IMG/VR virus record: IMGVR_UViG_3300020166_000018
From: an uncultured virus (IMG/VR IMGVR_UViG_3300020166_000018)
Lineage: Duplodnaviria; Heunggongvirae; Uroviricota; Caudoviricetes
Length of the DNA stretch: 20,000 bases
Strand: one strand, 5' to 3'
The notes under the pieces were generated by a model. It searched no databases and was not told the DNA's origin. It saw only the letters and a list, made by a program, of their open reading frames with translations. Of this stretch, positions 3 through 14,852 are shown in pieces. How positions within the stretch are numbered: position 1 is the stretch's first letter; the number at the start of each line of letters is the position of its first letter. Both the position numbers and the translations under genes were made by a program.

Positions 3-815
3 CAGGGACCCGAAGGTTTAATCGGTCCTAAAGGTAATGATGGTGGTATTGGTGCTATAGGTCCTAAGGGCGTTATAGGTCCATTAGGCCCACAAGGTCC
101 TGAAGGTTTAATTGGCCCTATCGGTATAGGAAACGTTCAAGGTGCTATTGGTCCAATAGGTCCAGGTGTAGCTCAAGGTGCAATTGGTCCTAAAGGTCCC
201 CAAGGTCCTGAAGGTTTAATAGGCCCAATTGGTCCCGAAGGCTTAATTGGTGCTAAAGGTCTTTTAGGTCCTTTAGGTGCAATTGGTCCCAAAGGTATTA
301 TAGGTGCTATTGGAGTAATAGGTCCACAAGGACCCGAAGGTTTAATAGGTAATAAAGGTCCAATTGGTGCTATAGGTGCAATTGGTCCTAAAGGTATTAT
401 AGGTGCTATTGGACCCTTAGGTCCCCAAGGTCCTGAAGGTCTTATAGGACCTAAAGGTAACGATGGTGGTATAGGCGCTATAGGTCCTAAAGGTATTATT
501 GGCCCCAAAGGGAACACAGGTGCAATTGGTCCACAAGGTCCTATTGGTCCTATAGGAATTGGAGCAGGTATAGGTCCACGTGGTCCTATTGGTCCTGCAG
601 CCCCACAAGGTGCAATTGGTCCTATTGGTCCTATAGGTCTTGAAGGTTTAATTGGTCCTATAGGTCCTGAAGGTTTAATTGGTGCTAAAGGTATAGCAAA
701 TGTTCAAGGTGCAATCGGCCCCAAAGGTCCTACAGCATCAATTGGTGCAATTGGACCACAAGGACCCGAAGGTTTAATAGGTCCACAAGGTCCTATTGGT
801 CCAAAAGGTGAAGCA
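3..815 (+). repeat. Collagen Gly-X-Y repeat block 1 (~270 aa, continues off the left edge)
   Basis: 9-nt periodicity GGN-NNN-NNN. Dominant triplets are [18 protein letters not shown]. Confidence 0.95.
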
Positions 816-3800
816 AATGAAATTGAAGGTAGTGTATTAATAGAAACGTTTTCAACCCATGGAGGTAATGGTAATACTTCCCAATACTCACAATACCCAG
901 GTAATGCTTCAGATTTTGAATCATTCTTTAATGTAAACCTATCAAATACATCATTTACAGATTCAGCAGTTGATAGTTTAAGTAATACTACAAATGCTTT
1001 AAATTGGACTAATACTGCAGGATTACAAACAATTTTAACTGTTCCAAATTCAGGAGCATATTTTTCAACCAGAGTAACAGGTATTTTTAGACCTAAAGAA
1101 ACTGGTACATATACTTTTTCAGCTGAATCCGATGATTCTGTCCAAGTAAAAATTGGAAGTACTATAGTTTACGGTTTTTATGGAGGTAGAGGTAGAAGTA
1201 GTGTAGGAACTCATACTGGTACCGTTTCATTAACAGCAGGTACTAGTTACAATATTGTAGTTTACCAACAAGAGTATGGTGGTGGAGATGGTTTAACTGT
1301 ATGGTGGAAAAAACCATCAGAATCCTCAGGTTCTACATGGTACCAACACACAGACGAAATTTTCACTTCAGGTGATCAAGGATCTCAAGGTTCACAAGGA
1401 CCACAAGGTTCTATAGGTCCTAGAGGCCCTGAAGGTTTAATAGGAAATAAAGGTCCTATTGGTGCAATAGGTGCAATTGGTCCTAAAGGAAATACTGGAG
1501 CGATTGGTCCACAAGGTCCTGAAGGTTTAATAGGCCCAATAGGCCCTATTGGTCCAACCGCCCCTATAGGTGCTAGAGGTCCTATAGGTCCAGGTGCTCC
1601 TATAGGTGCTAGAGGCCCTATTGGTCCACAAGGACCAGAAGGTTTAATAGGTCCACAAGGTCCTGAAGGTTTAATTGGTAATAAAGGTCCAATTGGTGCT
1701 ATAGGTGCAATTGGTCCTAAGGGCCCCATTGGTGCTATTGGACCATTAGGTCCACAAGGTCCTGAAGGTTTAATAGGAAATAAAGGTCCAATTGGCGCTA
1801 TTGGTGCTATAGGTCCTAAAGGAAATACAGGTATTATAGGTCCACAAGGTCCTGAAGGTATTATAGGCCCAAGAGGTCCTATTGGTCCTGCGGCCCCACA
1901 AGGAGCTAGAGGCCCAATTGGTCCAGCAGCACCTCAAGGTGCTATAGGTCCCATTGGTCCACAAGGACCAGAAGGTTTAATAGGCCCACAAGGTCCTGAA
2001 GGTTTAATAGGAAATAAAGGCCCAACAGCTCCTATAGGTGCTATCGGTCCTATTGGTCCTAAGGGTCCTGAAGGCTTAATAGGCCCACAAGGACCAGAAG
2101 GTTTAATTGGTAATATAGGCCCAGCAGCACCTCAAGGTGCTATAGGTCCCAAAGGTCCTGCAGCCCCACAAGGTGCTAGAGGTCCCATTGGTCCACAAGG
2201 ACCCGAAGGTTTAATTGGTCCACAAGGGCCCGAAGGTTTAATAGGTCCCAAAGGTCCTGCAGCCCCACAAGGTGCAATTGGTCCTATTGGTCCACAAGGT
2301 CCTGAAGGTCTAATTGGTCCACAAGGACCCGAAGGTTTAATAGGTCCCAAAGGTCCTGCAGCCCCACAAGGTGCAATTGGTCCTATAGGTCCTAAAGGAA
2401 ATGAAGGTGCAATAGGTCCACAAGGACCTGAAGGTTTAATTGGTAATATAGGCCCTGCAGCACCACAAGGTGCAATCGGTCCTAAAGGAAATACAGGCGC
2501 AATAGGCCCACAAGGCCCTGAAGGTTTAATAGGTCCAATTGGTCCTATTGGTTTAGCAAATGTTCAAGGTGCAATTGGTCCTATAGGTCCTAAAGGAAAT
2601 GAAGGTGCAATAGGTCCAATTGGTCCTGAAGGTTTAATAGGTCCCAAAGGTCCTGTTGCTCCCCAAGGTGCAATCGGTCCTAAAGGAAATACAGGCGCAA
2701 TAGGCCCACAAGGCCCTGAAGGTTTAATAGGCCCAAGAGGTCCTATTGGTTTAGCAAATGTTCAAGGTGCTATAGGTCCTAAAGGAAATGAAGGTGCAAT
2801 AGGTCCACAAGGACCAGAAGGTTTAATAGGTTCTAAAGGCCCTGAAAGTGCAATTGGACCTAGAGGTCCATTAGGGGAAAAAGGTCCAAAAGGTCCAAAA
2901 GGGTATACTGGTCCACGAGGTCCTAAAGGCCCTAAAGGTCCAGCATCTACCTCAGGAATTGGTCCTAAAGGTCCTGAAGGTGCAATTGGACCTAAAGGTC
3001 CAGCTTCTCCTTTGGGCCCAGAAGGCCCTATTGGACTAATAGGTCCTGGTGTTTCTCCTTTAGGCCCAGAAGGCCTTATTGGACCACAAGGTCCAAAAGG
3101 TGCTGAAGGTGCAATAGGTCTAATTGGTAATATAGGCCCAGCTAATATTACTCAAGGTCCACTAGGTCCCCAAGGTCCTGAAGGTTTAATTGGTCCCAAA
3201 GGTAATAGAGGTCCTATTGGTCCCCAAGGACCCGAAGGTCCTATTGGTCCAACAGCCCCACAAGGTGCAATTGGTCCTATAGGTCCTAAAGGAAGTGAAG
3301 GCGCAATAGGTTTACAAGGTCCAATTGGTCCCGATGGTCCTCAAGGTCCTGGGGGTCCAGCTGGAGCTATAGGCCCTAGAGGTCCTATAGGTCCTAAAGG
3401 AAATGAAGGTGCAATAGGTCCAATTGGTCCTAAAGGCCGTATTGGTCCTAAAGGTGTTACAGGTAATGGTCTAATAGGTACAACAACCAATGTAGCAATA
3501 GATACAGTTCCTTACCAACACAGTATGGAATTTGCAAATGGTTATCTCCAATCACATTCTGCAACATATAAAAATTATCGTTACTACCATAATGATGGAG
3601 TAAATGATTATGTTGCTGGAGATTGGGATCCTGTAGATGCTAACCCAGGAGAAGATGATTTTTCAATTAATTTTTGGGTTCGTAATAATGAGACAGATAA
3701 AACTAATATGATCTTTTGTGATTTTAATGCAGTTGCATTAAACGTTAATAATAATAACAATAGATGTTTTATCCAATACGCAGCAAATACTAATAGATTA

Positions 3801-4274
3801 CTACTACAGTTAAGAACTAATGCTACTAACTTTGGTTTACAAGTCCCCCTCCATAATAATTCAGGTACTACAGGAATTACAAGTTCATCTTCAGGATGGA
3901 GAGCTGCCCAACGTGGTAACGTCAATAGTGATAACTTCTGTATGATTACAGTTACCTATGATGCTTCTCAAACTACAGGGGCTAATGCTATTAAAATTTA
4001 TTGGAATGGTACTCGAATATCTAATAGTCAAGTATCACTTAACGGAACTAGTAATGCTAATTGTGATATGGATGAATGGGCTTACTACAAGAAAATCCTT
4101 TCTACTAGTGAAATTACTACATTATATAATAGTGGTAATATTAAAGCTGCTGACCTTTTAGTATCTAATGGTTTAACAGAAAGTTGTAGATTTGATATTA
4201 ATGGAAGTGCCACTACAACAGGTTCAACTTATACTAGCGTTAGTATTTCAGGAGGTACAACCCCATTATATTAA
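3..4274 (+). CDS. Giant collagen-like fibre protein (5' truncated, >=1423 aa): Gly-X-Y block / PA14 domain / Gly-X-Y block / LamG-ConA-like C-terminal domain
   Basis: Hand translation of the frame starting at nt 3 ([22 protein letters not shown]...) stays open and in frame with the tracked ORF 3012..4274, whose TTG 'start' is an internal Leu. Gly-X-Y repeats span about 3-815 and 1371-3485. Confidence 0.92.
816..1370 (+). other. PA14 domain (~185 aa insert) within the collagen protein
   Basis: Translation [37 protein letters not shown]...[34 protein letters not shown] matches the PA14 pattern (R.TG...P.ETG.YTF...SDD; L.AG..Y.I; E.GGG..L...W..P). The DD pair is at 1131-1136. Confidence 0.85.
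1371..3485 (+). repeat. Collagen Gly-X-Y repeat block 2 (~700 aa)
   Basis: Gly-X-Y with short interruptions and a recurring GPQGPEGLI unit. The string ggtcccaaaggtcctgcagccccacaaggtgc recurs at 2145, 2244 and 2343 (99-nt period). Confidence 0.95.
3570..4271 (+). other. LamG / ConA-like lectin jelly-roll domain at the fibre C-terminus (putative receptor binding)
   Basis: Motifs [25 protein letters not shown] and [23 protein letters not shown] follow the Laminin_G_3 pattern (FS...W; i..tyD; .lYvNG; iDE..iy...Ls..eI..lY). Confidence 0.8.
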
Positions 4275-4286
4275 TTTAAATAAATT

Positions 4287-4538
4287 ATGAGTACTAGATA
4301 TTTTTTAATAACAGGGTCAGAATATACAAATTACGATAGTTCTTTAGATCAACCCGCAGCATGGAATTTAGATAATAGTAAATGTGTTATAGAAGTTCCA
4401 ACTGGATTTACAGTTACTTCCTATATTCAAAAATTTAGAAGTAGTGGAGAATTTAAAACTTGGAGAAATGCTGATGCTAATTGGCCCGATTGGGAGACAC
4501 AAGCTCAACATGATGGCACAGATTTAGACGATTTCTAA
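4287..4538 (+). CDS. Hypothetical protein (83 aa) directly after the fibre gene
   Basis: ATG 12 nt after the fibre stop, TAA stop, fills the gap to the next gene. No motif recognised. Confidence 0.75.
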   Translation: MSTRYFLITGSEYTNYDSSLDQPAAWNLDNSKCVIEVPTGFTVTSYIQKFRSSGEFKTWRNADANWPDWETQAQHDGTDLDDF

Positions 4539-4554
4539 AAAACAAGTAAATGTT

Positions 4555-5706
4555 ATGAAATTAGTTATATATGCGGGGTATTATTCCCCACCCTACTCAC
4601 CTGAAACTATTGACGAAATTGGTTTAGGAGGTACTGAACAATGTATTATAAATTTAGCTAAAACCCTTAAATCCCAAAATCCAATTTGGGATATTTGGGT
4701 CGTTGGTGGAGTAGTTTATGGTGATTACGATGGAGTAATGTATAGACCTACACAAGATTTCAAAAATGAAGTTAAATCTGTAGATACTATAATCGGAGTT
4801 TCATACATTCATTACATTGAAGAATTTAAAAACATCGATTATACCGACTCAATATTTTGGGTACATAATACCGATTATTTTACGTGGTGGAATGGCGAAG
4901 AATTACCCAACCATCGTGAATTACTTTCAAATCCAAAACTAAAATCTATAGTTTGCTTAACAGAATGGCATAAAAACAAATTCATAGAACAATTCCCAGA
5001 AACACAAGATAAAATTCAAGTTATAGGTAATGGAGTAGATACTTCTAATTTTCAAGTAGGAGAAAAAAACCCAAATCAATACATTTACACTTCACATGCT
5101 GAACGAGGTTTAGGGCAAGTATTAAGTGAATGGAATGATATTTTATTAGTAAACCCAAACGCAGAACTTAAAATATCAACCCCACAATACGGCTTAGAAT
5201 ATTATAACCTTTATTACAAAGATTGGGTAAGTAGTTTGGATAACACAGAATTCCTTGGTACATTACCACAACACGAGCTATACAAACTAATGGCTGAGAG
5301 TACTTATTGGTATTACCCCTCATCATATGAGGAAACCTTTTGTATCACGGCATTAGAGATGTTAGGACATAATGTTCAACCTATTACATGGGAATGGGGT
5401 GGATTAAAAGAAACATTAAATAATTTTAATACCCGAGATAGAAATGAATCTTTAAATTGGGGTAAAGTAAACGAATATTTAGAACAATGTAATTGGGAAT
5501 CCAGAGTAAATAATAATTGGTTACCCCTACTATCAAAAGCAAATATGAAATTAGATAAATTTTACGTTTTAGCATTAAATGAAACCCCAGAAATGAGAGA
5601 AAAATGTGATAATTTACATTTACCCTCTCCTACTCCATATTGGATTAAACCTGGGGTTTTGATGCTAGACAAATGTCTCAAGAAGATTGGGATAAATTTG
5701 GTGTAG
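4555..5706 (+). CDS. GT4 (GT-B) glycosyltransferase domain followed by the N-terminus of a GT25 domain; 5' part of a frameshifted fusion gene
   Basis: N-terminal GLGGTEQ, VIGNGVD and the E-x7-E motif ETFCITALE indicate GT4. From 5545, MKLDKFYVLALNETPEMREK...WIKPG resembles a GT25 N-terminus. Sequence after ~5655 in this frame looks out of frame and ends in TAG. Confidence 0.82.
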   Translation: MKLVIYAGYYSPPYSPETIDEIGLGGTEQCIINLAKTLKSQNPIWDIWVVGGVVYGDYDGVMYRPTQDFKNEVKSVDTIIGVSYIHYIEEFKNIDYTDSIFWVHNTDYFTWWNGEELPNHRELLSNPKLKSIVCLTEWHKNKFIEQFPETQDKIQVIGNGVDTSNFQVGEKNPNQYIYTSHAERGLGQVLSEWNDILLVNPNAELKISTPQYGLEYYNLYYKDWVSSLDNTEFLGTLPQHELYKLMAESTYWYYPSSYEETFCITALEMLGHNVQPITWEWGGLKETLNNFNTRDRNESLNWGKVNEYLEQCNWESRVNNNWLPLLSKANMKLDKFYVLALNETPEMREKCDNLHLPSPTPYWIKPGVLMLDKCLKKIGINLV

Positions 5707-6887
5707 CAAAACACACTAGGTGGAATATAGAAGGTAGCAATCCTTGGTGGAAACGCGATGTAATGGAAGGTGAGTTAGGCTGTGGTTTATCTCATGTTGA
5801 TACATGGGTTGATGCTTATCGTGAAGGTTTAGAAACAGCACTTATTTTAGAAGAAGATTTCTACCAGGAGAGACCAGTAGATTGGGATCAAATAGGTCAA
5901 CTTATAGACAAAGGTTATGATTTAATTTATTTAGGTCGTAATGCCTTAGAAGCTTATCTAGAAAAACCAATTGAAGGTGTAGAAGGATGGGTAGAACCCG
6001 ATTATACCTATAATTCACACGCTTATATTTTATCTAAAAGAGGTATTCAAATTTTAGTAGAAGAATACATGGAGCAATACAAAAGTGAAATGTTTGCTTT
6101 TGATGAGTTCCTTTCTATTACTTTTGGTATGACCCATCGCCAGGATATTTTAGGTGAGTATTATGGTAAAACACGTTTAAGAGCAGCAGCTCCCGTAGAA
6201 GATTATTATACTCAAAAAGATAGCCCAGGATTAACGTTTTATATAGCGGAAGAAAAAAAAAACCCTTTAATAATTAGTTCTCCTAAATTTGGTATAGCTA
6301 ATGATGATAATTGGGAACAATGGTGTATAGATTATATACACCCTGTAATAAGAAAAGGTCAATATAAATTAATGGTAGATGAAATTGCCCCTAATGTAAT
6401 TGAATTTCCTTTATTCACAGAAAAGTTTTGTAAAGAAATGATTGTTTTAGCAGAAGATAAAGAATGGGTAACAGATAGACATACTTTTTACCCTACTACT
6501 GATCAAACTATGGAAAGTTTAGGCTTACAACATATTTACCAAAGGGTATTAGAACAATTTGTATATCCTATTTGGACTTGGTTTTGGGATTTACAAGGTG
6601 AAGGTTGGGATAATTTAAAAAGTGAAAATTTTATAGCTAAATATGATACAGAAAATCAAGGTAGCTTAGACTTGCATCATGATAGTTCTGTTATTACATT
6701 AAATGTAAGATTAAATAATGGATTTAAAGGTGGAGGAACATTCCTCCCAAAATATAAAACTACAGTACAACCACGAAAAACAGGATATGCAATGTCCCAC
6801 CCAGGAAATATTACACATTTGCATGGTGGTAGACCAGTAGAAGAAGGAACACGTTATATATTAGTATCATTTACAGACAAAAAATAA
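5673..6887 (+). CDS. GT25 procollagen-galactosyltransferase-like domain + PLOD-like lysyl hydroxylase (2OG-Fe(II)) domain; 3' part of the frameshifted fusion (frame open from 5649)
   Basis: GT25 motifs: GELGCGLSH, ALILEED, YDLIYLGR, EPDYTYNSHAYILS, DEFL. Hydroxylase motifs (~6300-6880): YIHP, FPLFTEKFC, PTTD, NFIAKY, QGSLDLHHDSSVITLNV, GGGT, HPGNITHLHGG, GTRYILVSF. Confidence 0.88.
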   Translation: MSQEDWDKFGVAKHTRWNIEGSNPWWKRDVMEGELGCGLSHVDTWVDAYREGLETALILEEDFYQERPVDWDQIGQLIDKGYDLIYLGRNALEAYLEKPIEGVEGWVEPDYTYNSHAYILSKRGIQILVEEYMEQYKSEMFAFDEFLSITFGMTHRQDILGEYYGKTRLRAAAPVEDYYTQKDSPGLTFYIAEEKKNPLIISSPKFGIANDDNWEQWCIDYIHPVIRKGQYKLMVDEIAPNVIEFPLFTEKFCKEMIVLAEDKEWVTDRHTFYPTTDQTMESLGLQHIYQRVLEQFVYPIWTWFWDLQGEGWDNLKSENFIAKYDTENQGSLDLHHDSSVITLNVRLNNGFKGGGTFLPKYKTTVQPRKTGYAMSHPGNITHLHGGRPVEEGTRYILVSFTDKK

Positions 6888-6890
6888 AAT

Positions 6891-7508
6891 ATGGACACAC
6901 TTTATTCATTTCCCCTAGATTTTGACAAATATGTCAATCAAAGCAATTATTATTGGTTTGAGGAAGGTTTTACAGCAGAAGAACTTCAAACCTTAGAACA
7001 ACAAGTCCAAGAAATTCCATCCCAAGCTGGAGTAACCGAATCAGGTAATCAAGATGAAGGTGAGGGGTTAGAATCTCGTAATTCTATGATTAAATGGGTT
7101 CCGTTTAGTGATGAAACTAAATGGATTTATGACAAAATTGGAATGTTAGCTAAAACTGCTAATGATGAAATGTTCCATTTTGATATCCATAACATGCCTG
7201 AAAATATCCAGTACACAGAATACTATGGTACTAATAAAGGCCATTACGATTGGCATATGGATATTGGAACTGAAGGCTTTATGAAATTTCGTAAAATTTC
7301 AGTTACAGGGGTTCAACTATCAGATTCTGATGAATATGAAGGTGGAGATTTACAAATTTGGCCTGGTGGTCAAACTCCTTATACTGCACCACGTGGTAAG
7401 GGTAATGTAGTAATATTTCCCTCTTATTTAATGCATAGAGTAACACCTGTTACTTCAGGTACTAGAAAATCATTTGTACTTTGGTTAGGAGGAGCTCATT
7501 TTAAGTAA
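6891..7508 (+). CDS. 2OG-Fe(II) oxygenase (P4Hc/PKHD-like phage hydroxylase)
   Basis: YDWHMD (HxD), RKISV, YEGGDL, FPSYLMHRVTPVTSGTRKSFVLW (distal His and 2OG-binding Arg). Confidence 0.9.
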   Translation: MDTLYSFPLDFDKYVNQSNYYWFEEGFTAEELQTLEQQVQEIPSQAGVTESGNQDEGEGLESRNSMIKWVPFSDETKWIYDKIGMLAKTANDEMFHFDIHNMPENIQYTEYYGTNKGHYDWHMDIGTEGFMKFRKISVTGVQLSDSDEYEGGDLQIWPGGQTPYTAPRGKGNVVIFPSYLMHRVTPVTSGTRKSFVLWLGGAHFK

Positions 7509-8269
7509 TGAAGGTAGCAGTTTGTGTTAGTGGTCAACCCCGCAATTACGAACAGGGTTACCATGAATTAAAAAAATGGTTTTTAGATAAGTATGATTGT
7601 GATGTTTATCTCCATACTTGGAAAGATACTAATTCAACAATGGGGGGAGGACATAAGTTCTCTACCCCTATTGAATATCAATTTACTGAAAATGATTATA
7701 CCCAAATCTCAGAATTATACAACCCAGTCAAAAGTCATTTTCAACTCCCAATTCCCTTTGATACAACAGAAATCAAGGGGCATTTAGGTTATAAATTACA
7801 TAATATCCTTAGTGGTTACTATTCAGTATATGCTTGTAATAAACTTTTACAAGACTCAGGTAATAAATATGATTATGTTATCCGTACTAGATTTGATTTA
7901 TCTTTTACTGATTATATTTCCCCCGAATGTATATTTTTAAAGGATATTACTCAACTAGAGTTAAATGGTATAAATGTATTTCAATACCCTATAGTTAATG
8001 GTTTTACAACTCGTATATCAGAAGTAGATGATTTATTTGCTGTAGGTTCTATGGATGTTATAAACACTTACTCTAATTGTTTTTCATATATGTTAAAGTA
8101 TATTTACATGGATAAAAAATACCCTGAATGGTTAGAAACTGTAGTCTCAGGTAATCCTGATAAGTTATGTCCTGAAAGTTTATTAAAGTATCATTTAATA
8201 CAAAATGGTATTGAAATTAACTATATAGATAGTCTAACCGATAATTTCACAGCTCATATTTTACGATGA
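7508..8269 (+). CDS. Putative glycosyltransferase-like protein, paralog 1 (SGQPR...RFD type)
   Basis: MKVAVCVSGQPR, DVYLHTW, YDYVIRTRFDL, DLFAVG. TAATG overlap with the upstream gene. Function inferred from motifs and context. Confidence 0.6.
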   Translation: MKVAVCVSGQPRNYEQGYHELKKWFLDKYDCDVYLHTWKDTNSTMGGGHKFSTPIEYQFTENDYTQISELYNPVKSHFQLPIPFDTTEIKGHLGYKLHNILSGYYSVYACNKLLQDSGNKYDYVIRTRFDLSFTDYISPECIFLKDITQLELNGINVFQYPIVNGFTTRISEVDDLFAVGSMDVINTYSNCFSYMLKYIYMDKKYPEWLETVVSGNPDKLCPESLLKYHLIQNGIEINYIDSLTDNFTAHILR

Positions 8270-9015
8270 AAATAGCATTATTAATTAGTGGTCAACCACG
8301 TAGGTATAGGGAAGGGTATCAAGAACTTAAAAAATGGTTTTTAGATAGATATGATATCGATGTATATCTACATGCATGGAAAGATACTGAATTTAAAAAG
8401 TATGATTTTTTTAATGAAGGTAAAGTTCAAAAAACATATGAAGTAGGAGATGATTTATACCAAAATTTATTAGATTGGTACCAACCAAAAGGCTATTTAT
8501 TTGAACCATCAATTGAATTTGATTCATCAGGTCTAAAAGGACCCAACAACCAACGTTTAAATTCTCAAATGGGCATGTGGATGTCTACACAACGCGTTTG
8601 GGATTTATGTGAATCTTCAGGTATAGAATATGATTTAGTTTTTAAAACTCGTTATGATCTTTTATTTACTCATTACGTTGCTAATAATTGTGATTTATTA
8701 ACTGATTTATCAAAGTTAGATAAGAATCGTGTTAATTTCTGGGAGTATGCTCCTCATTGGAACATGGACTGGCAAATGAATGATCAATTAGCTATTGGCC
8801 CACCTAACTTAATGAAAAAATATTGTAGCGTGTTTTCTGAAATGTTATTTAATATATTTTATAATCCGGAATACAGGGATGGAAATAATGATATATTCAT
8901 TAATGAAACATTAATTTTACAACATATAAATAATAAACATATTCCACTCAAACCAATGTATCATGGGTTCGAAGGATCTAGAGGTATTGATTGTGGGTGT
9001 CATATAATGAGATAA
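8266..9015 (+). CDS. Putative glycosyltransferase-like protein, paralog 2
   Basis: MKIALLISGQPR, ELKKWFLD.YD.DVYLH.WKDT shared with paralog 1, YDLVFKTRYDL, NDQLAIG. ATGA overlap with the upstream gene. Confidence 0.6.
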   Translation: MKIALLISGQPRRYREGYQELKKWFLDRYDIDVYLHAWKDTEFKKYDFFNEGKVQKTYEVGDDLYQNLLDWYQPKGYLFEPSIEFDSSGLKGPNNQRLNSQMGMWMSTQRVWDLCESSGIEYDLVFKTRYDLLFTHYVANNCDLLTDLSKLDKNRVNFWEYAPHWNMDWQMNDQLAIGPPNLMKKYCSVFSEMLFNIFYNPEYRDGNNDIFINETLILQHINNKHIPLKPMYHGFEGSRGIDCGCHIMR

Positions 9016-9016
9016 T

Positions 9017-11437
9017 ATGAAAGAACCAAAAGTTTTTTTTTATAATAACCACACTAGAGATTTTTACCGAGAACTCCAAAAACACCTCCCAGTTAAATTT
9101 AGGAATTTTACTGTAGGTAAATCTTGGTCGGGTCTTTCAGATGAACCCCATAATGGTGAACCTTATTTAAATGATATTGATAAAAAATTATTAGTAGAGC
9201 AAACAGTATGGGGTGATAATGATAAGTTAGTAGATCGCTCAATTTATTCTCACCACCCTAATGAATTTGAACATAATGTAAATTTGGTTTTAAATGAATC
9301 TAATCACCATTATTACTACCACAACTACCAAGGTCCTAAAATAGCGTATAATGTTTGGGAATCTACTAGACAAGAAGAAGGATTTTTTAATAAATTATTA
9401 GAATTTGATCAAATTTGGGTTCCTTCTCAATGGCAAGCAGATTGTACTATTGCTCAAGGAGCTAATCCCGATAAAGTAAAAGTAGTACCCGAAGGAGTAG
9501 ATACAAAAACCTTCTACCCAGAAGATCCCCAAACTACTTTAGATTATGTAGATGGTAGATTTAAATTTATTATCTTTGGCCGTTGGGATTATCGAAAATC
9601 TACAAAAGAGATGATTGAAACTTTCCTTAAAACTTTTGACCCATCCGAACCTGTAGACTTAATTGTTTCTATTGATAATATGTGGGGTAAAAATATGGAT
9701 GGTTTTGAAACTACAGAAGAAAGACTAGAACACTACGGATTTACTGATGAACGAATTAAAGTAAAACACTTCCCCTCTAGAGAAGATTACATTACATATT
9801 TAAAAAATGGTCATGTATTTTTATCATGTGCTAGAGCTGAAGGTTGGAATTTACCCTTAATTGAAGCTATGGCTTGTGGTACCCCATGTATCTACTCAGC
9901 TGATTCAGCTCAAATGGAATTTGCTAAAGGTAAAGGTCTACCTGTAAAAATTAAAGGTTTAAAACCTGCTAATGATGCTACATATGCTCGTTATAAAATG
10001 GCCAACAGTGATACCCCAGGTGATTACCCGGAACCTGACTTTGATGATTTAGCTCTTGTAATGCGAGATGCCTTTGAAAATTATACAGATCATAAAAAAC
10101 GTGCTCTAGAAGAATCTAAAATTATTCATAGAGATTTTAATTGGGAACGCATTGGTAAAATTGGAGCTGAAACTCTTAAAGACTTCTTAAAAAATTATAA
10201 AGAACCAAAAGATACAAACACCATAAAAGTTAACTACATAGGAGCCCCAAAGGTAGAAATTTTAGGTAATGTATCTAAATCTTATAAAGTAGAATTTATT
10301 AATCAAGAAACTAATGAAGTAATACACCAGGATACTATTACTAATGGTATGTGGACTGTCTGTAATAAAGAATATTATATCCCTTGGTTGATTAAAGTTA
10401 ATGGTAAAGAAATTTCTCGTTTAGATATTAAAAATCAAAAGATTTTAATTTCTTTAGAGTCTAAATCTATAGGCGATACTTTAGGTTGGGCACCTTACGC
10501 TATAGAATTTGCAAAAAAACATAAGTGTAAGGTTTATTTATCAACTTTTCATAATGAATGGTTTGAAGGTTTAGAATCATACAAAAATATTACATTTATC
10601 AAACCAGGCACTAATACTGAATGTGTAGCTCATTATAGAATAGGATGGTTTAAAGATAATGATAATAAATGGAATGTAGGGTCCCATAACCCTAGACAAT
10701 GTAATACTATTCCAATGCAGGCAACTGCATCTGATATTTTAGGGTTAGATTTTAAAGAAATAAATCATGGGGTTAATTTTCTCCCTAAAAAACGCCCCTT
10801 AAAGGAAAAGTATATTTGTATAGCTCCTCGTTCTACTGCTGGATGTAAAGAATGGCCACATTCTAATTGGTCTATTTTATCTAAACTTTTAAAGGGTTTA
10901 GGTTATAAAGTAATTAGTATATCTTACGAAGGATTTAAAGGTAAAGATATTATAGATAGACCAGGACTTAATTGGGAGGATACCTATAATTACCTTTATC
11001 ATGCAGAAGCCTTTATAGGGTTAAGTTCCGGTATTTCTTGGTTTAATTGGGCAATATCTTACGAAGGATTTAAAGGTAAAGATATTATAGACAGACCAGG
11101 ACTTAATTGGGAGGATACCTATAATTACCTTTATCATGCAGAAGCCTTTATAGGGTTAAGTTCCGGTATTTCTTGGTTTAATTGGGCAATGAATAAGCAT
11201 TCATTTATGATTAGTGGTTTTAGTGAAAAAGATCATGAATTTACTACAAATGTAACTCGTATTTCAAGTGATTCATGTTTTCCATGTTGGAATAATAAAA
11301 ACTTTATGTTTGATGCTGGGGATTGGAATTGGTGTCCTATTCATAAGGATACTGAACTACAACATATTTGCCAGAAATCTATCCATCCTAATCAAGTTTT
11401 TAAACAAATTAAACAACGATTAACTAGTAAAAAATAA
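9017..11437 (+). CDS. Two-domain glycosyltransferase: N-terminal GT4 + C-terminal autotransporter heptosyltransferase (TibC/Aah)-like domain
   Basis: GT4: VWES, WVPS, VVPEGVD, FGRWDYRK, EGWNLPLIEAMACG. C-half: SKSIGDTLGWAPYAIEFAKKH, YICIAPRSTAGCKEW, FIGLSSGISW, and the Cys cluster CFPCWN...WNWCP.HK...ICQKSI. Contains an in-frame 45-aa duplication. Confidence 0.8.
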   Translation: MKEPKVFFYNNHTRDFYRELQKHLPVKFRNFTVGKSWSGLSDEPHNGEPYLNDIDKKLLVEQTVWGDNDKLVDRSIYSHHPNEFEHNVNLVLNESNHHYYYHNYQGPKIAYNVWESTRQEEGFFNKLLEFDQIWVPSQWQADCTIAQGANPDKVKVVPEGVDTKTFYPEDPQTTLDYVDGRFKFIIFGRWDYRKSTKEMIETFLKTFDPSEPVDLIVSIDNMWGKNMDGFETTEERLEHYGFTDERIKVKHFPSREDYITYLKNGHVFLSCARAEGWNLPLIEAMACGTPCIYSADSAQMEFAKGKGLPVKIKGLKPANDATYARYKMANSDTPGDYPEPDFDDLALVMRDAFENYTDHKKRALEESKIIHRDFNWERIGKIGAETLKDFLKNYKEPKDTNTIKVNYIGAPKVEILGNVSKSYKVEFINQETNEVIHQDTITNGMWTVCNKEYYIPWLIKVNGKEISRLDIKNQKILISLESKSIGDTLGWAPYAIEFAKKHKCKVYLSTFHNEWFEGLESYKNITFIKPGTNTECVAHYRIGWFKDNDNKWNVGSHNPRQCNTIPMQATASDILGLDFKEINHGVNFLPKKRPLKEKYICIAPRSTAGCKEWPHSNWSILSKLLKGLGYKVISISYEGFKGKDIIDRPGLNWEDTYNYLYHAEAFIGLSSGISWFNWAISYEGFKGKDIIDRPGLNWEDTYNYLYHAEAFIGLSSGISWFNWAMNKHSFMISGFSEKDHEFTTNVTRISSDSCFPCWNNKNFMFDAGDWNWCPIHKDTELQHICQKSIHPNQVFKQIKQRLTSKK
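10919..11188 (+). repeat. Tandem direct repeat, 2 x 135 bp, in frame
   Basis: 10919-11053 and 11054-11188 are identical except a synonymous T/C (10957 vs 11092). Duplicates ISYEGFKGKDIIDRPGLNWEDTYNYLYHAEAFIGLSSGISWFNWA. Confidence 0.95.
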
Positions 11438-11441
11438 CTTA

Positions 11442-11450
11442 ATATTTATA
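11442..11450 (+). promoter_or_regulatory. ATATTTATA motif, copy 1 (putative late promoter element)
   Basis: Intergenic, ends 2 nt before ATG 11453. One of six copies ahead of consecutive genes. Confidence 0.5.
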
Positions 11451-11452
11451 AC

Positions 11453-11704
11453 ATGAATAAAATTTATTTAACAGAAGAAGAAAAAAAGGAAATTGTAGAT
11501 ATCCAAACCCAAGAGAACGATTATATGGTTCAATTAGGCCAAATTGAATATCAAATTCAATCCTTAAAATCACAAAAAATCACTATTGGAGAAAGTCTTA
11601 AACAATTTGAGCAACATAAAACAAAATTTGCTCAACAACTACAAGATAATTATGGTGAAGGTTCTATCAATATAGAAACCGGAGAATTTATAAAATCCAA
11701 TTAA
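11453..11704 (+). CDS. Small coiled-coil hypothetical protein upstream of the sheath
   Basis: Q/E/K-rich helical sequence ending LQDNYGEGSINIETGEF. ATG/TAA, fills the intergenic gap. Confidence 0.75.
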   Translation: MNKIYLTEEEKKEIVDIQTQENDYMVQLGQIEYQIQSLKSQKITIGESLKQFEQHKTKFAQQLQDNYGEGSINIETGEFIKSN

Positions 11705-11722
11705 ATTTTGAATTCTCTTCTA

Positions 11723-11731
11723 ATATTTATA
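11723..11731 (+). promoter_or_regulatory. ATATTTATA motif, copy 2
   Basis: Intergenic, upstream of sheath ATG 11755. Confidence 0.6.
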
Positions 11732-11754: not shown

Positions 11755-13494
11755 ATGGCAGAAACATTAGTATCACCTGGCGTATTAGCAAGAGAAAACG
11801 ACCAGTCATTTATCACGCAGCAACCTGTTCAAGTAGGTGCTGCCATCGTTGGTCCTACAGTAAAAGGTCCTGTAGAAATTCCTACAATAGTAACTTCATA
11901 TTCAGATTACCAAAACAGATTTGGTACTACATTTGAAAGTGGTAGTGATGAATATTCATTCATGACTAACATCGCAGCATATAACTACTTCCAAAATGGA
12001 GGTAATACTATGTTAGTAACACGTGTAGTCTCAGGTTCTTCAGATTGGGATTATGCTGAAGCAGAAATTCCAGCTTCTGGTAGTGGTACTTCATTTACAA
12101 TTGAAGCTATTGATAAAGGTATTATCTTTAACAATTCAGCATCCGATGGTGTAAACCTAATTGTTGGTGGTTCAGGATCTTTAGTAGACGGTACATCAGA
12201 TAATATTAGATGGGAAATTGCTAACTCATCTCAAGATGATGGTAATTTTACTTTATTAGTAAGACAGGGTAATGACAATGATAATAATAAAATTATTTTA
12301 GAGTCTTGGACTAACTTATCATTAGATCCTAAAGCTGATAATTACGTTGCTAAAGTAATTGGTGACCAATATTACACTTACAATAGTACAGAAAATTATA
12401 TTGAAATTACAGGTTCATATGCTAATGCCTCTAGATATATTAGAGTATCAACTGTAAATTTAAAAACACCAAATTATTTTGATAATGCAGGTAATGCTAA
12501 ATTAGCATATACAGCATCTGTACCACAAGTAGGTTCAGGTTCATATGGTGGTACTTTTGACGATGGTGATGGTAACATTATTCCATCAGGTAGAACAATG
12601 AATCTTTACGGTGACATTAACGCTACTGATACTCAAGGTTTAGTTGGTACTGATTACGATAATATGTTAGACTTATTATCAAATCAAGACGATTACCAAT
12701 TTAACTTATTAGTAACCCCAGGTTTGATTGATACAGCTCAAACTTCTCAAATGACTACTGCTTTAAACAATACTCAAATGAGAGGTGATAGTATTTACAT
12801 TATGGATTTAGTTCCTTATGCTTCCACTATTACAGCAGCAAACACACAAGCTAATGCTAGAAACTCATCATATGGTGCTGCTTACTGGCCTTGGTTACAA
12901 ACAATTGATCCAGATATGGGCGATCAAGTATGGGTACCAGCTTCGGCAATGATTCCGGGAGTATACGCGTTTAACGACAATGCCTCTGAACCATGGTTCG
13001 CTCCGGCGGGTATTAATAGAGGTGGTTTAACCACAGTAATTCGCCCAGAAAGAAAATTATCTCAAGCTAACAGAGATAGTTTATACCAGAATAAAGTTAA
13101 CCCAATTGCTTCATTCCCAGGTGTAGGAACAGTAGTATACGGTCAGAAAACATTACAACGTCAAGCTAGTGCTTTAGATAGAGTAAATGTTAGAAGATTA
13201 TTAATTGCTCTTAAATCATACATAGGTCAAACAGCTCAAACGTTAGTATTTGAACAAAATACAGCAGCTACTAGAAATAATTTCTTAGCACAAGTAAACC
13301 CATACTTAGAATCAGTAGTTCAAAGACAAGGTTTATATGCGTTTAAAGTAGTAATGGATGAAAGCAACAACACCCCAGATGTAGTAGACAGAAATCAGAT
13401 GGTAGGTGCTATTTATTTACAACCAACAAAAACAGCTGAATTTATTATCTTAGACTTTAACGTATTACCAACTGGAGCAACATTCCCTAGTTAA
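11755..13494 (+). CDS. Contractile tail sheath protein (T4 gp18-like)
   Basis: N-terminal SPGVLAREND and VGPTVKGP. C-terminal AYWPWL, PWFAPAGINRG, VNPI, GQKTLQ, ALDRVNVRRLL, VFEQN, PTKTAEFI. Confidence 0.96.
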   Translation: MAETLVSPGVLARENDQSFITQQPVQVGAAIVGPTVKGPVEIPTIVTSYSDYQNRFGTTFESGSDEYSFMTNIAAYNYFQNGGNTMLVTRVVSGSSDWDYAEAEIPASGSGTSFTIEAIDKGIIFNNSASDGVNLIVGGSGSLVDGTSDNIRWEIANSSQDDGNFTLLVRQGNDNDNNKIILESWTNLSLDPKADNYVAKVIGDQYYTYNSTENYIEITGSYANASRYIRVSTVNLKTPNYFDNAGNAKLAYTASVPQVGSGSYGGTFDDGDGNIIPSGRTMNLYGDINATDTQGLVGTDYDNMLDLLSNQDDYQFNLLVTPGLIDTAQTSQMTTALNNTQMRGDSIYIMDLVPYASTITAANTQANARNSSYGAAYWPWLQTIDPDMGDQVWVPASAMIPGVYAFNDNASEPWFAPAGINRGGLTTVIRPERKLSQANRDSLYQNKVNPIASFPGVGTVVYGQKTLQRQASALDRVNVRRLLIALKSYIGQTAQTLVFEQNTAATRNNFLAQVNPYLESVVQRQGLYAFKVVMDESNNTPDVVDRNQMVGAIYLQPTKTAEFIILDFNVLPTGATFPS

Positions 13495-13540: not shown

Positions 13541-14029
13541 ATGGCAGTATTAGATCCCAACGAAATATTCTTTACAGCATTTGAACCAAAACAACCCAAT
13601 AGGTTCATTATGTACATGGATGGGTTTCCTTCATTTATAGTAAAGGGTGTAAGTGCTGTAACTTTAACTCAAGGTTCTGTACCTTTAAATCATATTAACG
13701 TTCAACGTTTTGTTAAAGGTAAAACAGTATGGAACCCAATTACATTTACCCTTTTTGACCCAATTACACCTTCAGGTGCTCAAGCGGTAATGGAATGGGT
13801 ACGTTTACACCACGAATCAGTAACAGGTAGAGATGGTTATTCGGATTTCTATAAAAAAGATTTAACATTTAACGTATTAGGTCCTGTAGGTGATGTAATA
13901 TCTGAATGGATTATTAAAGGTGCTATGATTACATCAGCTGACTTTGGGGCTTATGGTTGGGATGATGTAGATGCTGCAGTAAACCTTACAATGGAAGTTC
14001 AACCAGATTACTGTATCTTGAATTTCTAA
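13541..14029 (+). CDS. Tail tube protein (T4 gp19-like)
   Basis: 162 aa right after the sheath. FEPKQPNRF, GKTVWNPITFTLFDPI, YKKDLTFNVLGPVGDVISEWIIKGA are typical of myophage tube proteins. Confidence 0.88.
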   Translation: MAVLDPNEIFFTAFEPKQPNRFIMYMDGFPSFIVKGVSAVTLTQGSVPLNHINVQRFVKGKTVWNPITFTLFDPITPSGAQAVMEWVRLHHESVTGRDGYSDFYKKDLTFNVLGPVGDVISEWIIKGAMITSADFGAYGWDDVDAAVNLTMEVQPDYCILNF

Positions 14030-14126: not shown

Positions 14127-14852
14127 ATGGAATTTAAATTACCAACAGAAACAGTAACCCTACCATCTAAGGGTCTATTTTACTCAAAAGATAATCCACT
14201 TTCATCTGGAGAAGTTGAAATTAAATATATGACAGCAAAAGAAGAAGACATTCTTACTAATGCTAACTATATTCAAGATGGTACTGTATTAGATAAATTA
14301 ATGAAGTCACTTATAGTTAGTAAAATTAATTATAATGATCTCCTTATTGGTGATAAAAATGCTATTATGATAGCATCTCGTATTTTAGGGTATGGTAAAG
14401 ATTATAAGTTTACATACCAGGGTGAAGAACACATAGTAGATTTAAGTACCTTAGAAAATAAAGAAATAGATGATAATATTTTTACTTCTGGTGAAAATTT
14501 ATTTAACTTTACCCTCCCTACTACAAATGTAGATATTACTTTTAAATTATTGACACATGGTGATGAAGCTAAAATATCTCAAGAAATTAAAAGCCTTAAA
14601 AAAATTAATTCTAAGGTAACTGCTGATCTCACAACAAGACTTAAATACATTATTCAATCAGTAGACGGTAGTAATGAACCTAAAGATATTAGGCAATTTA
14701 TAGATAATTATCTCTTAGCCCAAGATGCCAGGGCATTAAGAAATTATATTAATGAAATTCAACCTGATGTTGACCTAACTTTTTTTCACGAACGGACTGA
14801 AAAAAGAAGTACAATTCCCATTGGACTTAACTTTTTTTGGCCTGACGTCTAA
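14127..14852 (+). CDS. Tail/baseplate-hub assembly chaperone-like protein (T4 gp26-like)
   Basis: LPSKG, IKYMTAKEEDIL, LLIGDKNAIMIASRILGYG, C-terminal IPIGLNFFWP. Lies between tube and tape measure. Confidence 0.7.
   Translation: MEFKLPTETVTLPSKGLFYSKDNPLSSGEVEIKYMTAKEEDILTNANYIQDGTVLDKLMKSLIVSKINYNDLLIGDKNAIMIASRILGYGKDYKFTYQGEEHIVDLSTLENKEIDDNIFTSGENLFNFTLPTTNVDITFKLLTHGDEAKISQEIKSLKKINSKVTADLTTRLKYIIQSVDGSNEPKDIRQFIDNYLLAQDARALRNYINEIQPDVDLTFFHERTEKRSTIPIGLNFFWPDV

Follow-up and report, generated by a model that had tools for sequence, protein, structure and literature searches.

A collagen-like fibre gene and a putative lysine-hydroxylating and glycosylating cassette in an uncultured marine myophage

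The collagen-like fibre of an uncultured marine phage is probably (I put it at about two chances in three) hydroxylated on lysines at the Y position of its Gly-X-Y triplets and then glycosylated by enzymes of the adjoining gene cassette, a reading drawn from sequence comparison. The observations behind it are the gene content, domain homologies, conserved catalytic residues, lysine placement and gene linkage of the locus. It implies that phages may decorate their collagens as animals do instead of leaving them bare, and the cassette would be a phage form of a collagen modification otherwise known from animals and mimivirus. The original prediction knew of no characterised example in a bacteriophage, and a literature search found none either, nor any description of a collagen-modifying cassette in phages.

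Results and discussion

The window (the whole 20,000-nucleotide stretch of IMG/VR record IMGVR_UViG_3300020166_000018 analysed here) covers the late structural genes of a marine myophage that has not been cultured, with the post-translational modification cassette lying between the fibre genes and the sheath gene. From 3 to 11437 on the plus strand it carries a collagen-like fibre gene and then eight modifying-enzyme domains, followed by tail sheath, tube and baseplate genes (Table 1). Judged by the sheath protein, which is 54% identical to its counterpart, the closest cultured relative is Flavobacterium phage immuto. This layout had been predicted from the letters alone, and each part of it holds: a collagen-like gene of at least 1423 codons (Pfam Collagen, E 6.8e-103); cassette ORFs all on its strand, 1-16 nt apart or overlapping; two 2OG-Fe(II) oxygenase domains, namely the lysyl hydroxylase (LH) domain of ORF 5673-6887 and ORF 6891-7508; six glycosyltransferase-like domains (GT4, GT25, two GT-A-fold paralogues, a second GT4 and a TibC-like domain); and the sheath/tube module directly downstream. 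The small ORF behind the fibre gene has no match in Pfam, PHROG or NCBIfam, the one at the cassette/sheath junction has no significant family match in Pfam or PHROG, and the Pfam T4_baseplate match to ORF 14127-14852 lies under the cut-off.

Table 1. Features of the fibre, cassette and tail region of the window.
Feature	Position	Strand	Basis
Collagen-like fibre, 5'-open, at least 1423 aa	3..4274	+	Pfam Collagen; PHROG tail-fibre families
Non-collagenous insert of fibre, aa 272-456, with PA14 domain	816..1370	+	PF07691
C-terminal globular domain of fibre, aa 1157-1423	3471..4271	+	ESM Atlas and Foldseek
ORF order after fibre	4287-4538, 4555-5706, 5673-6887, 6891-7508	+	ORF listing
ORF order, continued	7508-8269, 8266-9015, 9017-11437, 11453-11704	+	ORF listing
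Small ORF, 83 aa	4287..4538	+	same position in relatives, 22-64% identity
GT4-type glycosyltransferase, N-terminal part of split GT4-GT25-LH gene	4555..5706	+	phrog_2170 4e-12
G run with 2-nt insertion relative to L001, splitting the tri-domain gene	5653..5656	+	reading-frame comparison
GT25 (COLGALT-like) and lysyl hydroxylase (PLOD-like) domains	5673..6887	+	structure-profile matches, PF01755
PKHD/P4H-like 2OG-Fe(II) oxygenase	6891..7508	+	PF13640 50.1 bits (cut-off 27)
GT-A-fold glycosyltransferase-like protein, paralogue A (DUF7796/phrog_13607)	7508..8269	+	phrog_13607 2.7e-26
GT-A-fold glycosyltransferase-like protein, paralogue B	8266..9015	+	phrog_13607 5.3e-22
GT4 domain of 806-aa bifunctional protein	9017..10276	+	PF00534 39.7 bits (cut-off 26.4); phrog_2170 4.2e-32
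TibC/Aah-type protein O-glycosyltransferase (BAHT-like) domain	10277..11437	+	TIGR04414
Small ORF, 83 aa, cassette/sheath junction	11453..11704	+	position kept in 12/12 close loci
Tail sheath	11755..13494	+	PF04984 and PF17482 above cut-off; phrog_23 9e-76
Tail tube	13541..14029	+	phrog_4542 7e-19
Baseplate hub-like protein	14127..14852	+	phrog_150 1.4e-9

The fibre, whose orthologue in the related locus L001 measures 1430 codons from stop to stop, contains 279 G-X-Y triplets spread over 21 runs, well above chance. Within them Pro stands 156 times at X and never at Y. Lys is found 42 times at Y and never at X, and since 42 of 42 lysines occupy Y the substrate matches the PLOD-like LH domain; this preference is nevertheless not specific evidence for lysine modification because Arg is biased likewise (382 at Y vs 25 at X). 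The PA14 domain (aa 351-439, 36.2 bits; cut-off 24) sits in an insert that is 87% identical in L003-L007 and, among the relatives compared, has no match in L001. The C-terminal domain finds no Pfam match even at E<=5, and is probably a Laminin_G_3/ConA-like lectin fold as judged from models: its ESM Atlas score is 0.97, 24 of 30 matches are Laminin_G_3 clusters, and the Foldseek matches of a weak AF2 model (pLDDT 56) are ConA-like jelly rolls. Its identity among close relatives is just 40-75%, and it is likely the receptor-binding tip. Relatives also carry neighbouring fibre proteins, some collagen-like and some with Gly-Ser-Ser repeats.

ORFs 4555-5706 and 5673-6887 are, by comparison with related loci, two halves of one GT4-GT25-LH gene, which forms a single ORF of 777-784 codons in four of the five relatives examined (L001, L002, L003 and L010). 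The Pfam GT1/GT4 scores of the first half fall just short of their cut-offs; the N-terminal GT4/GT1 domain is present in 21 of 27 long top-scoring representatives. The original prediction had compared the cassette with PLOD, COLGALT and mimivirus L230, and the domain searches it proposed return LH and GT25 matches in the second half. Against solved structures, aa 23-153 match COLGALT1 (E 1.8e-13), within a GT25 domain spanning 5673 to about 6270 that also scores 26.2 with PF01755 (cut-off 24), and aa 212-402 match PLOD3/LH3 (E 3.2e-24) and the L230 lysyl hydroxylase domain (E 2.5e-22). The Pfam 2OG models reach the LH domain below cut-offs only; its HHD, distal His and Arg motifs align with and are identical to those of PLOD3 and L230, and these residues are invariant in 26 homologues.

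A weak secondary match of the LH domain is phrog_2297, annotated as a DNA endonuclease, and phages reportedly pair glycosyltransferases with hydroxylation or hydroxymethylation of their bases. That the oxygenases and glycosyltransferases serve to hypermodify phage DNA, its bases being first hydroxylated and then glycosylated, is nonetheless hardly credible, given that the best matches are protein hydroxylases and that the cassette lies in the structural module, not in a DNA metabolism module. Moreover, a check of the cassette enzymes in Pfam, NCBIfam and PDB searches found none resembling a base modifier, with no match to Tet/JBP or any other nucleic-acid dioxygenase.

What, then, of the split in the gene? 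Relative to L001, the window copy has a 2-nt insertion at a G run (window CCTGGGGTTTTG, L001 CCAGGTTTTG) that cuts the first beta-strand region of GT25 off from the remainder, and two of 12 close relatives are disrupted too (L009 by an in-frame TAG at an invariant Trp, L012 by a frameshift in an A run). Were the frameshift real, the core enzyme would be a pseudogene here and the fibre of this phage, though maybe not those of its relatives, would go without hydroxylation and GT25 glycosylation. I consider this unlikely, because all three disruptions are homopolymer indels or single base changes in metagenome contigs, which fits sequencing or assembly error, and because the adjoining reading frames are intact, with 92-97% identity to L001 and no further decay.

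The remaining enzymes are more varied. ORF 6891-7508 is the best-conserved cassette protein (90-98% identity in 12 close loci); profile searches place it near a PKHD hydroxylase (3dkq, 2.5e-12), PiuC (7e-11) and a P4H (2.7e-7), and H182 and R192 are invariant, the HxD region almost so. The classical collagen P4H, which acts at Y, was ruled out as its identity because the fibre has no Pro there. The two paralogues that follow, 34% identical to each other and numbering 1 to 4 across relatives, are GT-A-fold glycosyltransferases according to structure prediction: the AF2 model of paralogue A (pLDDT 93.3) matches GT6 and GT31 enzymes in Foldseek (E 5.5e-7, TM 0.40-0.47). ORF 9017-11437 scores 253.6 bits with TIGR04414 against an NCBIfam equivalog cut-off of 200, and its match to the TibC structures 4rb4 and 4rap (2e-40) spans TibC residues 50-380 and preserves the CxxC...C...C pattern. 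An ADP-heptose donor is unsupported, because the heptose-donor pathway was not found in two large related genomes, where searches gave no match for GmhA and a PfkB kinase match that stayed below threshold.

These enzymes invite the thought that the cassette modifies capsid, sheath, other virion or host proteins. PLOD enzymes, however, recognise X-Lys-Gly in collagenous sequence, which these loci hold only in their fibres, and the linkage to collagen is kept down to 37% identity, which makes other targets very doubtful. In their favour, phage-encoded glycosyltransferases are said to glycosylate phage virions, as in mycobacteriophages, TibC-type enzymes usually act on beta-helical autotransporters and not on collagen, and the P4H-like oxygenase finds no Y-position Pro in the fibre. 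A 2OG oxygenase is also listed among cyanophage virion-associated proteins in the available portion of PMC12801897.

Cassette order is kept in 12 of 12 close loci, and the entire cassette adjoins the sheath gene in 32 of 89. Among dereplicated loci, 17 of the 34 whose upstream flank is at least 5 kb long have a collagen gene upstream of the LH homologue, and none of 46 has one downstream; because the clusters are not phylogenetically independent, the Fisher p of 2e-8 makes the support look stronger than it is. Collagen ORFs stand immediately 5' in all 10 dereplicated clusters with at least 55% identity and that much flank. The linkage persists at 37-38% identity, in L063 (12 contigs; a 1734-aa collagen with 226 Y-position lysines) and L046 (126 such lysines); the collagen of L019 has just 4 per roughly 300 triplets. 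The other 17 of the 34 have no collagen gene within 10 kb. Whole records were checked for ten loci with no collagen in the flank: three have collagen-like runs elsewhere, and the seven with no collagen anywhere are 10-55% complete. Six bacterial-genome loci of the LH homologue also have no collagen nearby.

The loci lacking a neighbouring collagen bear on the proposal that the glycosyltransferases, possibly together with the oxygenases, are auxiliary functions altering the cell surface of the host during infection, be it LPS O-chain, capsule or surface proteins, for instance to block superinfection, their adjacency to the fibre reflecting the plasticity of a host-recognition region. In L044 the GT25-LH gene has a sugar epimerase/dehydratase, a GT2 and another GT25 as neighbours but no collagen gene within 10 kb, although that record carries a huge Lys-rich collagen gene some 37 kb off. 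Pfam labels GT25 an LPS biosynthesis family, yet the closest solved relative of this GT25 domain is COLGALT1, not an LPS enzyme, and it is fused to a domain nearest the solved collagen lysyl hydroxylases. The GT4 and DUF7796 GT-A proteins have no acceptor-specific signature, whereas the TibC-type family glycosylates proteins. Glycosyltransferases in marine myophage host-recognition clusters have been read as host-surface modifiers (PMC7029224, in the part available). With collagen genes upstream in half of the 34 loci and downstream in none of 46, I find this account of the present cassette quite unlikely.

If the cassette does modify the fibre, the collagen-like chain would be produced in the host cytoplasm and the PLOD-like domain, by its homology and intact catalytic motif, would hydroxylate Y-position Lys in Gly-X-Lys using Fe(II), 2-oxoglutarate and O2. 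By homology again, the fused COLGALT-like GT25 would add a hexose onto the new hydroxyl, and the conserved fusion suggests that the GT4 lengthens that sugar. More speculatively, the PKHD/P4H-like oxygenase, the GT-A paralogues and the GT4-TibC-like enzyme might modify the fibre further, or might instead act on the adjacent fibre proteins of relatives, whether collagen-like or with Gly-Ser-Ser repeats. The product would be a triple-helical fibre bearing glycans, with PA14 and lectin-like binding domains.

Comparison with known systems

The bifunctional protein shares with E. coli TibC/Aah (BAHT) the TIGR04414 family and TibC residues 50-380, including the four conserved Cys; it differs in being phage-encoded and GT4-fused, with no autotransporter substrate nearby. 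BclA of Bacillus anthracis is a glycosylated protein. It resembles the unmodified Scl1/2 and E. coli prophage tail-fibre collagens, and the phage fibre, in its Gly-X-Y triple-helical stalk presenting globular binding domains at a cell or phage surface (PMC3368898 and PMC8968730, as far as the available text goes). These bacterial and prophage proteins are described without hydroxylysine chemistry, whereas this phage co-encodes a hydroxylase and glycosyltransferase set. Prokaryotic collagen-like proteins have been predicted to be hydroxylated by co-encoded 2OG/JmjC dioxygenases (Iyer et al., 2010; PMC2938197). Those operons differ in having beta-hydroxylase, PhyH and sulfotransferases on bacterial chromosomes, and the accessible part of that paper mentions neither a PLOD-type LH nor GT25 nor a phage fibre module and reads cyanophage dioxygenase arrays as secondary metabolism.

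With animal PLOD1-3/LH3 and COLGALT1/2 the phage cassette shares a homologous LH domain with identical Fe/2OG-binding residues, a homologous GT25 catalytic domain, and a substrate with Lys at Y of Gly-X-Y. In both, hydroxylase and galactosyltransferase are coupled, by fusion in the phage and as a complex in animals, to judge by the titles of PDB entries 8zgc-8zgh. The phage system would be cytoplasmic and bacterial where the animal one is in the ER, its GT25 and LH are one polypeptide, and a GT4 (GT-B) replaces the PLOD GT-A glucosyltransferase domain (PF25342, with no Pfam match in the window). Neither an accessory domain nor a signal peptide nor a lysyl oxidase partner came to light.

Mimivirus (L230/R699) likewise has a virus-encoded PLOD-like LH and collagen-like proteins in the same genome, and is to my knowledge the only viral case characterised earlier; L230 is reportedly a lysyl hydroxylase/glucosyltransferase acting on viral collagens. 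It is, however, a giant virus of amoebae and not a tailed bacteriophage, and L230 combines a PLOD-type GT with LH in place of GT4-GT25-LH. The phage cassette additionally encodes a PKHD-like oxygenase, a TibC-like domain and two GT-A paralogues, and lies in the tail module directly next to the gene for its presumed substrate.

A further parallel comes from cultured marine myophages, S-PRM1 and S-CAM9, with an LH domain 27.7% identical to that of the window and a fused GT25. Synechococcus virus S-PRM1 encodes a 614-aa protein, labelled merely 'hypothetical protein' in its record, with GT25, PLOD-GT (PF25342, 9e-46) and LH domains; no TibC-like gene occurs in the 18.5-kb stretch viewed. The middle domain is a true PLOD-type GT, so that the protein mirrors the three animal activities. 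The gene sits 1.5 kb downstream of a fibre gene with collagen and a C-terminal S74 chaperone, and two P4H-like oxygenases lie alongside. By these sequence criteria, the putative lysine-modifying linkage recurs independently in S-PRM1.

Gene order and type of phage

All long ORFs of the window lie on the + strand. Downstream of the collagen-like fibre gene comes a run of ORFs, spaced 1-16 nt apart or overlapping, that leads to the tail sheath, tail tube and baseplate hub-like genes (see table). Family, profile and structure searches bore out the domain content given in the original prediction, namely two oxygenase and six glycosyltransferase-like domains. Promoter and terminator scans gave 87 hits versus 83.7 in shuffled sequence and 15 versus 11.7, respectively, both at shuffle level; no terminator lay between genes within the cassette, and the scans are uninformative on operon structure.

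At 54% identity, the sheath resembles that of Flavobacterium phage vB_FspM_immuto, in which tail-fibre genes lie in the corresponding place upstream but no comparable cassette occurs; a megablast search of positions 4287-13494 against cultured phage records returned no match. GC content outside the collagen gene is ~31-35%, and related contigs run up to 130 kb (80% complete) and 170 kb (CheckV completeness 100%). Given the sheath kinship to immuto and relatives of this size, the phage is a large marine myophage, and its host, judged solely from the nearest cultured relative, is likely a member of the Bacteroidota. By their position relative to phage immuto, the ORFs beyond the baseplate hub may encode tape measure or baseplate proteins.

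Coordinates of features in the window and in cyanophage S-PRM1
Feature	Position	Strand	Evidence or remark
Collagen-like fibre ORF	3-4274	+	5'-open, 1423 aa; Pfam Collagen PF01391 336.9 bits versus cut-off 27.2, E 6.8e-103
Interruptions of collagen runs	130-200, 560-640, 1560-1600 and recurring; aa 44-58, 188-202, 520-534, 631-645, 709-723		~15 residues each
PA14-bearing insert	816-1370		
PA14 domain inserted in fibre	aa 351-439	+	Pfam
Small ORF	4287-4538		no Pfam match at E<=5
Putative GT4 ORF	4555-5706		Pfam GT1/GT4 25.7 versus cut-off 26.4, just under; phrog_2170 4e-12
GT25-LH ORF	5673-6887		GT25 aa 23-153, LH aa 212-402 (regions matched)
2OG oxygenase ORF	6891-7508		PF13640 50 bits versus cut-off 27
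DUF7796-like paralogues	7508-8269, 8266-9015		34% identity to each other; phrog_13607/DUF7796
GT4-TibC/Aah-type fusion	9017-11437		GT4: PF00534 39.7 bits versus cut-off 26.4
Small ORF	11453-11704		two non-significant Pfam matches only (E 0.05, 0.34; search at E<=5)
Tail sheath	11755-13494	+	Pfam, PHROGs
Tail tube	13541-14029	+	PHROGs
Baseplate hub-like gene	14127-14852	+	PHROGs; Pfam T4_baseplate below cut-off
ORFs beyond baseplate hub	15151-17019, 17263-19017, 19031-19366		622 aa, 584 aa and small; no Pfam or PHROG match
S-PRM1 (L101, MH629685) fibre-to-LH region	705-9546		all annotated hypothetical

The collagen-like fibre

By script count the fibre, which PHROGs assigns to collagen-containing tail-fibre families, has 279 Gly-X-Y triplets, grouped in 21 runs that are each four or more triplets long; the most frequent triplets are [12 protein letters not shown] (33), GLI and GPQ. 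The same kind of count placed 42 Lys at Y and none at X, which makes substrate available for lysine hydroxylation, and 156 Pro at X and none at Y. Stretches such as 'APQGA(I/R)GP(I/K)GPAAPQ' break the collagen runs at regular intervals and shift the Gly register; these interruptions look systematic rather than random. The PA14-bearing insert is also found in L003-L007 (87% identity), five of the loci that carry homologues of the cassette, and has no match in L001, whose enzymes are the most similar to those of the window; this patchy distribution suggests modular exchange inside the fibre.

No Pfam model matched the ~267 non-collagenous C-terminal residues even at E<=5. In the ESM Atlas this domain grouped with Laminin_G_3/ConA-like lectin clusters (score 0.97, 24 of 30 matches), and Foldseek with a weak AF2 model (pLDDT 56, 6-sequence alignment) pointed to ConA-like jelly-roll subdomains, a hint at the level of fold only. 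Among close relatives this tip is 40-75% identical whereas their enzymes are 80-97% identical, which fits a receptor-binding tip.

The GT4-GT25-LH gene

The C-terminal part of the GT25-LH ORF matches residues 512-714 of human LH3/PLOD3, whose structure is solved (E 3.2e-24), and residues 34-234 of the lysyl hydroxylase (LH) of mimivirus L230 (E 2.5e-22), the homology spanning the whole length of the domain. Its Fe(II) triad His-x-Asp...His and the Arg that binds 2-oxoglutarate (2OG) lie in 'lhHDss', 'itHlHgg' and 'gtRyi', where they are aligned with the same residues in LH3, and none of H335/H336/D337, H382/H384 and R394 varies among 26 aligned homologues. Generic Pfam 2OG models stay under their cut-offs here (PF25238 21 versus 31; PF03171 20.4 versus 23). 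The N-terminal part matches the catalytic domain of the collagen galactosyltransferase COLGALT1 (E 1.8e-13, and 1.5e-13 in a second search) and passes the GT25 model PF01755 (26.2 versus 24); the acidic E-x-D motif 'ileeD' is aligned with 'vfeDD' of COLGALT1, and E60 and D62 are likewise invariant among the 26 homologues.

The GT25 domain is split in the window, its N-terminal ~45 residues falling in the preceding GT4 ORF, for two extra G at 5653-5656 (a 2-nt insertion) separate the GT4 gene from the GT25-LH gene. Has the gene truly become a pseudogene in the genome of this phage? Close copies are disrupted in three of 13 cases: the window, L009, where TAG at 6696-6698 stands in place of an invariant Trp codon, and L012, whose reading frame is shifted within an A run of the GT25/LH linker at ~900-930. 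These could reflect assembly error, decay or on/off heterogeneity. GT4 and GT25-LH form one ORF of 777-784 codons with GT25 intact in four of the five relatives examined (L001, L002, L003 and L010). An alternative genetic code in L009 was rejected because TAG is a one-base change of the invariant TGG and no further in-frame stops occur. As for -1 programmed frameshifting at 5653-5656, the zero frame holds no canonical slippery heptamer.

Of 1.84 billion representatives, 380 matched the GT25-LH profile at E<=1e-30, and an N-terminal GT4/GT1 domain is present in 21 of the 27 long top-scoring matches, so that the GT4 partner is widespread. Two representatives of the LH family, P0205 and P0221, carry an N-terminal Peptidase_C39 instead of GT4, one of them also with GT25.

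Other enzymes of the cassette

The 2OG oxygenase that follows is nearest to PKHD/PiuC-type hydroxylases (2.5e-12) and more weakly resembles a prolyl 4-hydroxylase (P4H; 2.7e-7) in searches with a 15-sequence profile. The absence of Pro from the Y positions of the fibre rules out a classical collagen P4H; X-position Pro is a candidate substrate, which is a guess.

The paired paralogues downstream score 19.7 versus a cut-off of 27 for Pfam DUF7796 and fall among DUF7796 clusters in the ESM Atlas (0.98). A confident AF2 model (pLDDT 93.3, 26 sequences) resembles the GT-A families GT6 and GT31 (Foldseek E 5.5e-7, probability 1.0), but with a TM of just 0.40-0.47; D122, D130, D175 and E223 are invariant in the alignment and are candidates for the metal-binding DxD motif and catalytic base. 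Relatives carry one, two, three or four copies of this putative GT-A gene, and the tandem copy number varies among otherwise syntenic phages (L009:7736-9995, L022:3673-6660, L010:11834-12580).

In the last large enzyme gene, GT4 is fused to a TibC/Aah-type domain that scores 253.6 bits against TIGR04414 (BAHT, autotransporter O-heptosyltransferases; NCBIfam equivalog cut-off 200), a protein-glycosylating family, and aligns with TibC residues 50-264 and 283-380. The four-Cys metal site of the TibC/Aah family acts as an iron finger, and all four Cys are conserved ('sdsCfpCw...nwCp...hiCq' versus 'shgCygCw...lwCp...feCt'). Pfam and PHROGs found no autotransporter substrate for this domain in the window, and the related 130-kb and 170-kb genomes yielded, of an ADP-heptose pathway, no GmhA and only a sub-cut-off generic PfkB kinase. 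Hypermodification of DNA is a further, very improbable role for the cassette enzymes; one weak secondary PHROG match, annotated as a DNA endonuclease, speaks for it, but no other tool result does.

Several relatives have a third fibre-like protein, rich in Gly-Ser/Thr-Ser repeats, upstream of two collagen genes (L005:3-1439, L018:3-2927, L019:2-2161 and others). It contains up to 174 triplets and no Lys or Pro, and in the phage studied here it would be expected upstream of the window start. This protein is a plausible Ser/Thr O-glycosylation target of the TibC-like enzyme. A less probable alternative holds that the enzymes modify virion proteins other than the collagen fibre.

Conservation and linkage to collagen genes

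Gene order from GT4 to the baseplate is kept in 12 viral contigs at 77-97% identity, and a profile search recovered 79 viral loci and 10 loci in bacterial genomes, with the entire cassette beside a sheath gene in 32 of these 89. Within the clade of the window, two tandem collagen genes precede the cassette wherever upstream sequence exists, often with a gene for a Gly-Ser/Thr-Ser repeat protein ahead of them.

Dereplication at 90% identity left 54 clusters, in which I scored collagen as a same-strand flanking ORF with 30 or more triplets, using the truncated flanks of LH-positive contigs, with their own downstream flanks as control. A collagen ORF lies upstream in 17 of the 34 clusters with at least 5 kb of upstream sequence and downstream in none of the 46 with at least 5 kb on that side; counting against the link, 17 clusters (11 viral, 6 bacterial) have no flank collagen. 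The Fisher p of 2e-8 for upstream versus downstream is generous owing to kinship among the clusters. Every one of the 10 clusters at >=55% identity has upstream collagen, as do seven of the 24 at <50% identity. The collagens concerned include a 1734-aa protein with 226 Y-Lys and no X-Lys at L063 (12 contigs), one with 126 Y-Lys at L046, and two with 68 and 61 Y-Lys at L040.

Ten of the viral records without flank collagen were scanned whole, and collagen-like runs occur elsewhere in three and nowhere in seven, all 10 records being 10-55% complete. L041, L044, L084 and L088 lie in auxiliary or chromosomal surroundings. L088, a gammaproteobacterial contig, encodes a GT4-LH fusion of 559 aa (8948-10624) and L084, from Chryseosolibacter, a 443-aa LH-like protein between GH43 and MacB genes (9770-11098); neither has a collagen gene in its flanks.

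Across the 7426 triplets that adjoin LH genes, Lys occurs 1060 times at Y and 13 times at X, and Arg 382 times at Y and 25 times at X. The Lys-at-Y bias was therefore rejected as evidence of selection by the hydroxylase, since Arg leans towards Y as well.

A counterpart in cultured cyanophages

Searched against 50,697 phage records, the GT25-LH protein matches only S-CAM9, S-PRM1 and one marine contig, in each case over the LH domain. The S-PRM1 region begins with a fibre of 1824 aa (Collagen E 3e-25; 59 triplets with 23 Y-Lys) that ends in an S74 chaperone domain, followed in order by a 124-aa ORF, two P4H-like oxygenases and a 614-aa 'hypothetical protein'. The GT25 part of the latter matches COLGALT1 (7e-23), its PLOD-type glycosyltransferase part PF25342 (9.1e-46), LH3 (4e-33) and R699 (3e-31), and its LH part L230 (1.3e-9). 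As far as homology goes, this single protein is one that unites predicted counterparts of all three animal activities. S-PRM1 is an independent case, in which the predicted logic is shared and a middle or extra domain differs. S-PRM1 and S-CAM9 are in culture, with a related enzyme beside a collagen-bearing fibre, and the question is directly testable.

Discussion

What would these enzymes do together? By homology, the LH domain would hydroxylate Y-position Lys of the fibre chains, the fused GT25 would transfer a sugar onto the resulting hydroxylysine, and the fused GT4 would extend that sugar; I give this reading a probability of roughly two in three. The remaining enzymes may add further modifications to the collagen fibre or to neighbouring fibre proteins. 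Less probably, the cassette glycosyltransferases could remodel the host surface, which is the published reading of such enzymes in pelagimyophages (PMC7029224). For the numerous glycosyltransferases encoded in host-recognition regions of marine myophages, at present interpreted as acting on host LPS, the fibre reading offers an alternative.

A wider proposal is tentative, and I would sooner bet against it. Tailed phages of marine bacteria may run a complete, self-encoded cytoplasmic collagen maturation that comprises lysine hydroxylation, two-step O-glycosylation of hydroxylysine by a single polypeptide (GT4-GT25-LH or GT25-PLOD_GT-LH), a further hydroxylation and, on a neighbouring Gly-Ser-Ser repeat fibre, TibC-type O-glycosylation. 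The virion would then bear glycan-coated collagen fibres, many 'LPS-type AMG' glycosyltransferases in these host-recognition regions would really be virion-modifying, and the PLOD/COLGALT toolkit, seen so far as a trait of animals and giant viruses, would be widespread, and possibly older, among phages.

Collagen-like proteins of bacteria and phages are usually regarded as unmodified, and hydroxylysine glycosylation is considered a trait of animal collagens, with mimivirus the sole known viral exception. A conserved COLGALT-like/PLOD-like fusion beside Lys-at-Y collagen fibres would, if confirmed, bring this chemistry to bacteriophages, bear on the origin of the animal PLOD/COLGALT enzymes and offer compact single-chain enzymes for hydroxylated and glycosylated recombinant collagen from bacteria. 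Full-text searches of the openly accessible literature turned up nothing on phage collagens in connection with lysyl hydroxylase, hydroxylysine or COLGALT-type enzymes, and no word starting with phage, virus, viral, bacteria or prokaryot appears in a 2026 JBC paper on how lysyl hydroxylases evolved. Iyer et al., 2010 (PMC2938197) predicted that collagen-like proteins of bacteria are hydroxylated by dioxygenases of other families.

Finally, how does the cassette compare with known systems? Its TibC-like domain passes the score threshold of the TibC/Aah family, but without the usual substrate context of that family. PF25342, the PLOD-type GT-A domain, matched no window protein at E<=0.01, and LH is fused instead to GT25 and GT4. 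The window enzyme is therefore not of the mimivirus L230 type, which joins a PLOD glycosyltransferase domain to LH, whereas S-PRM1 does possess that domain. In its predicted chemistry, the cassette would nonetheless work like both the animal PLOD/COLGALT pathway and mimivirus L230.
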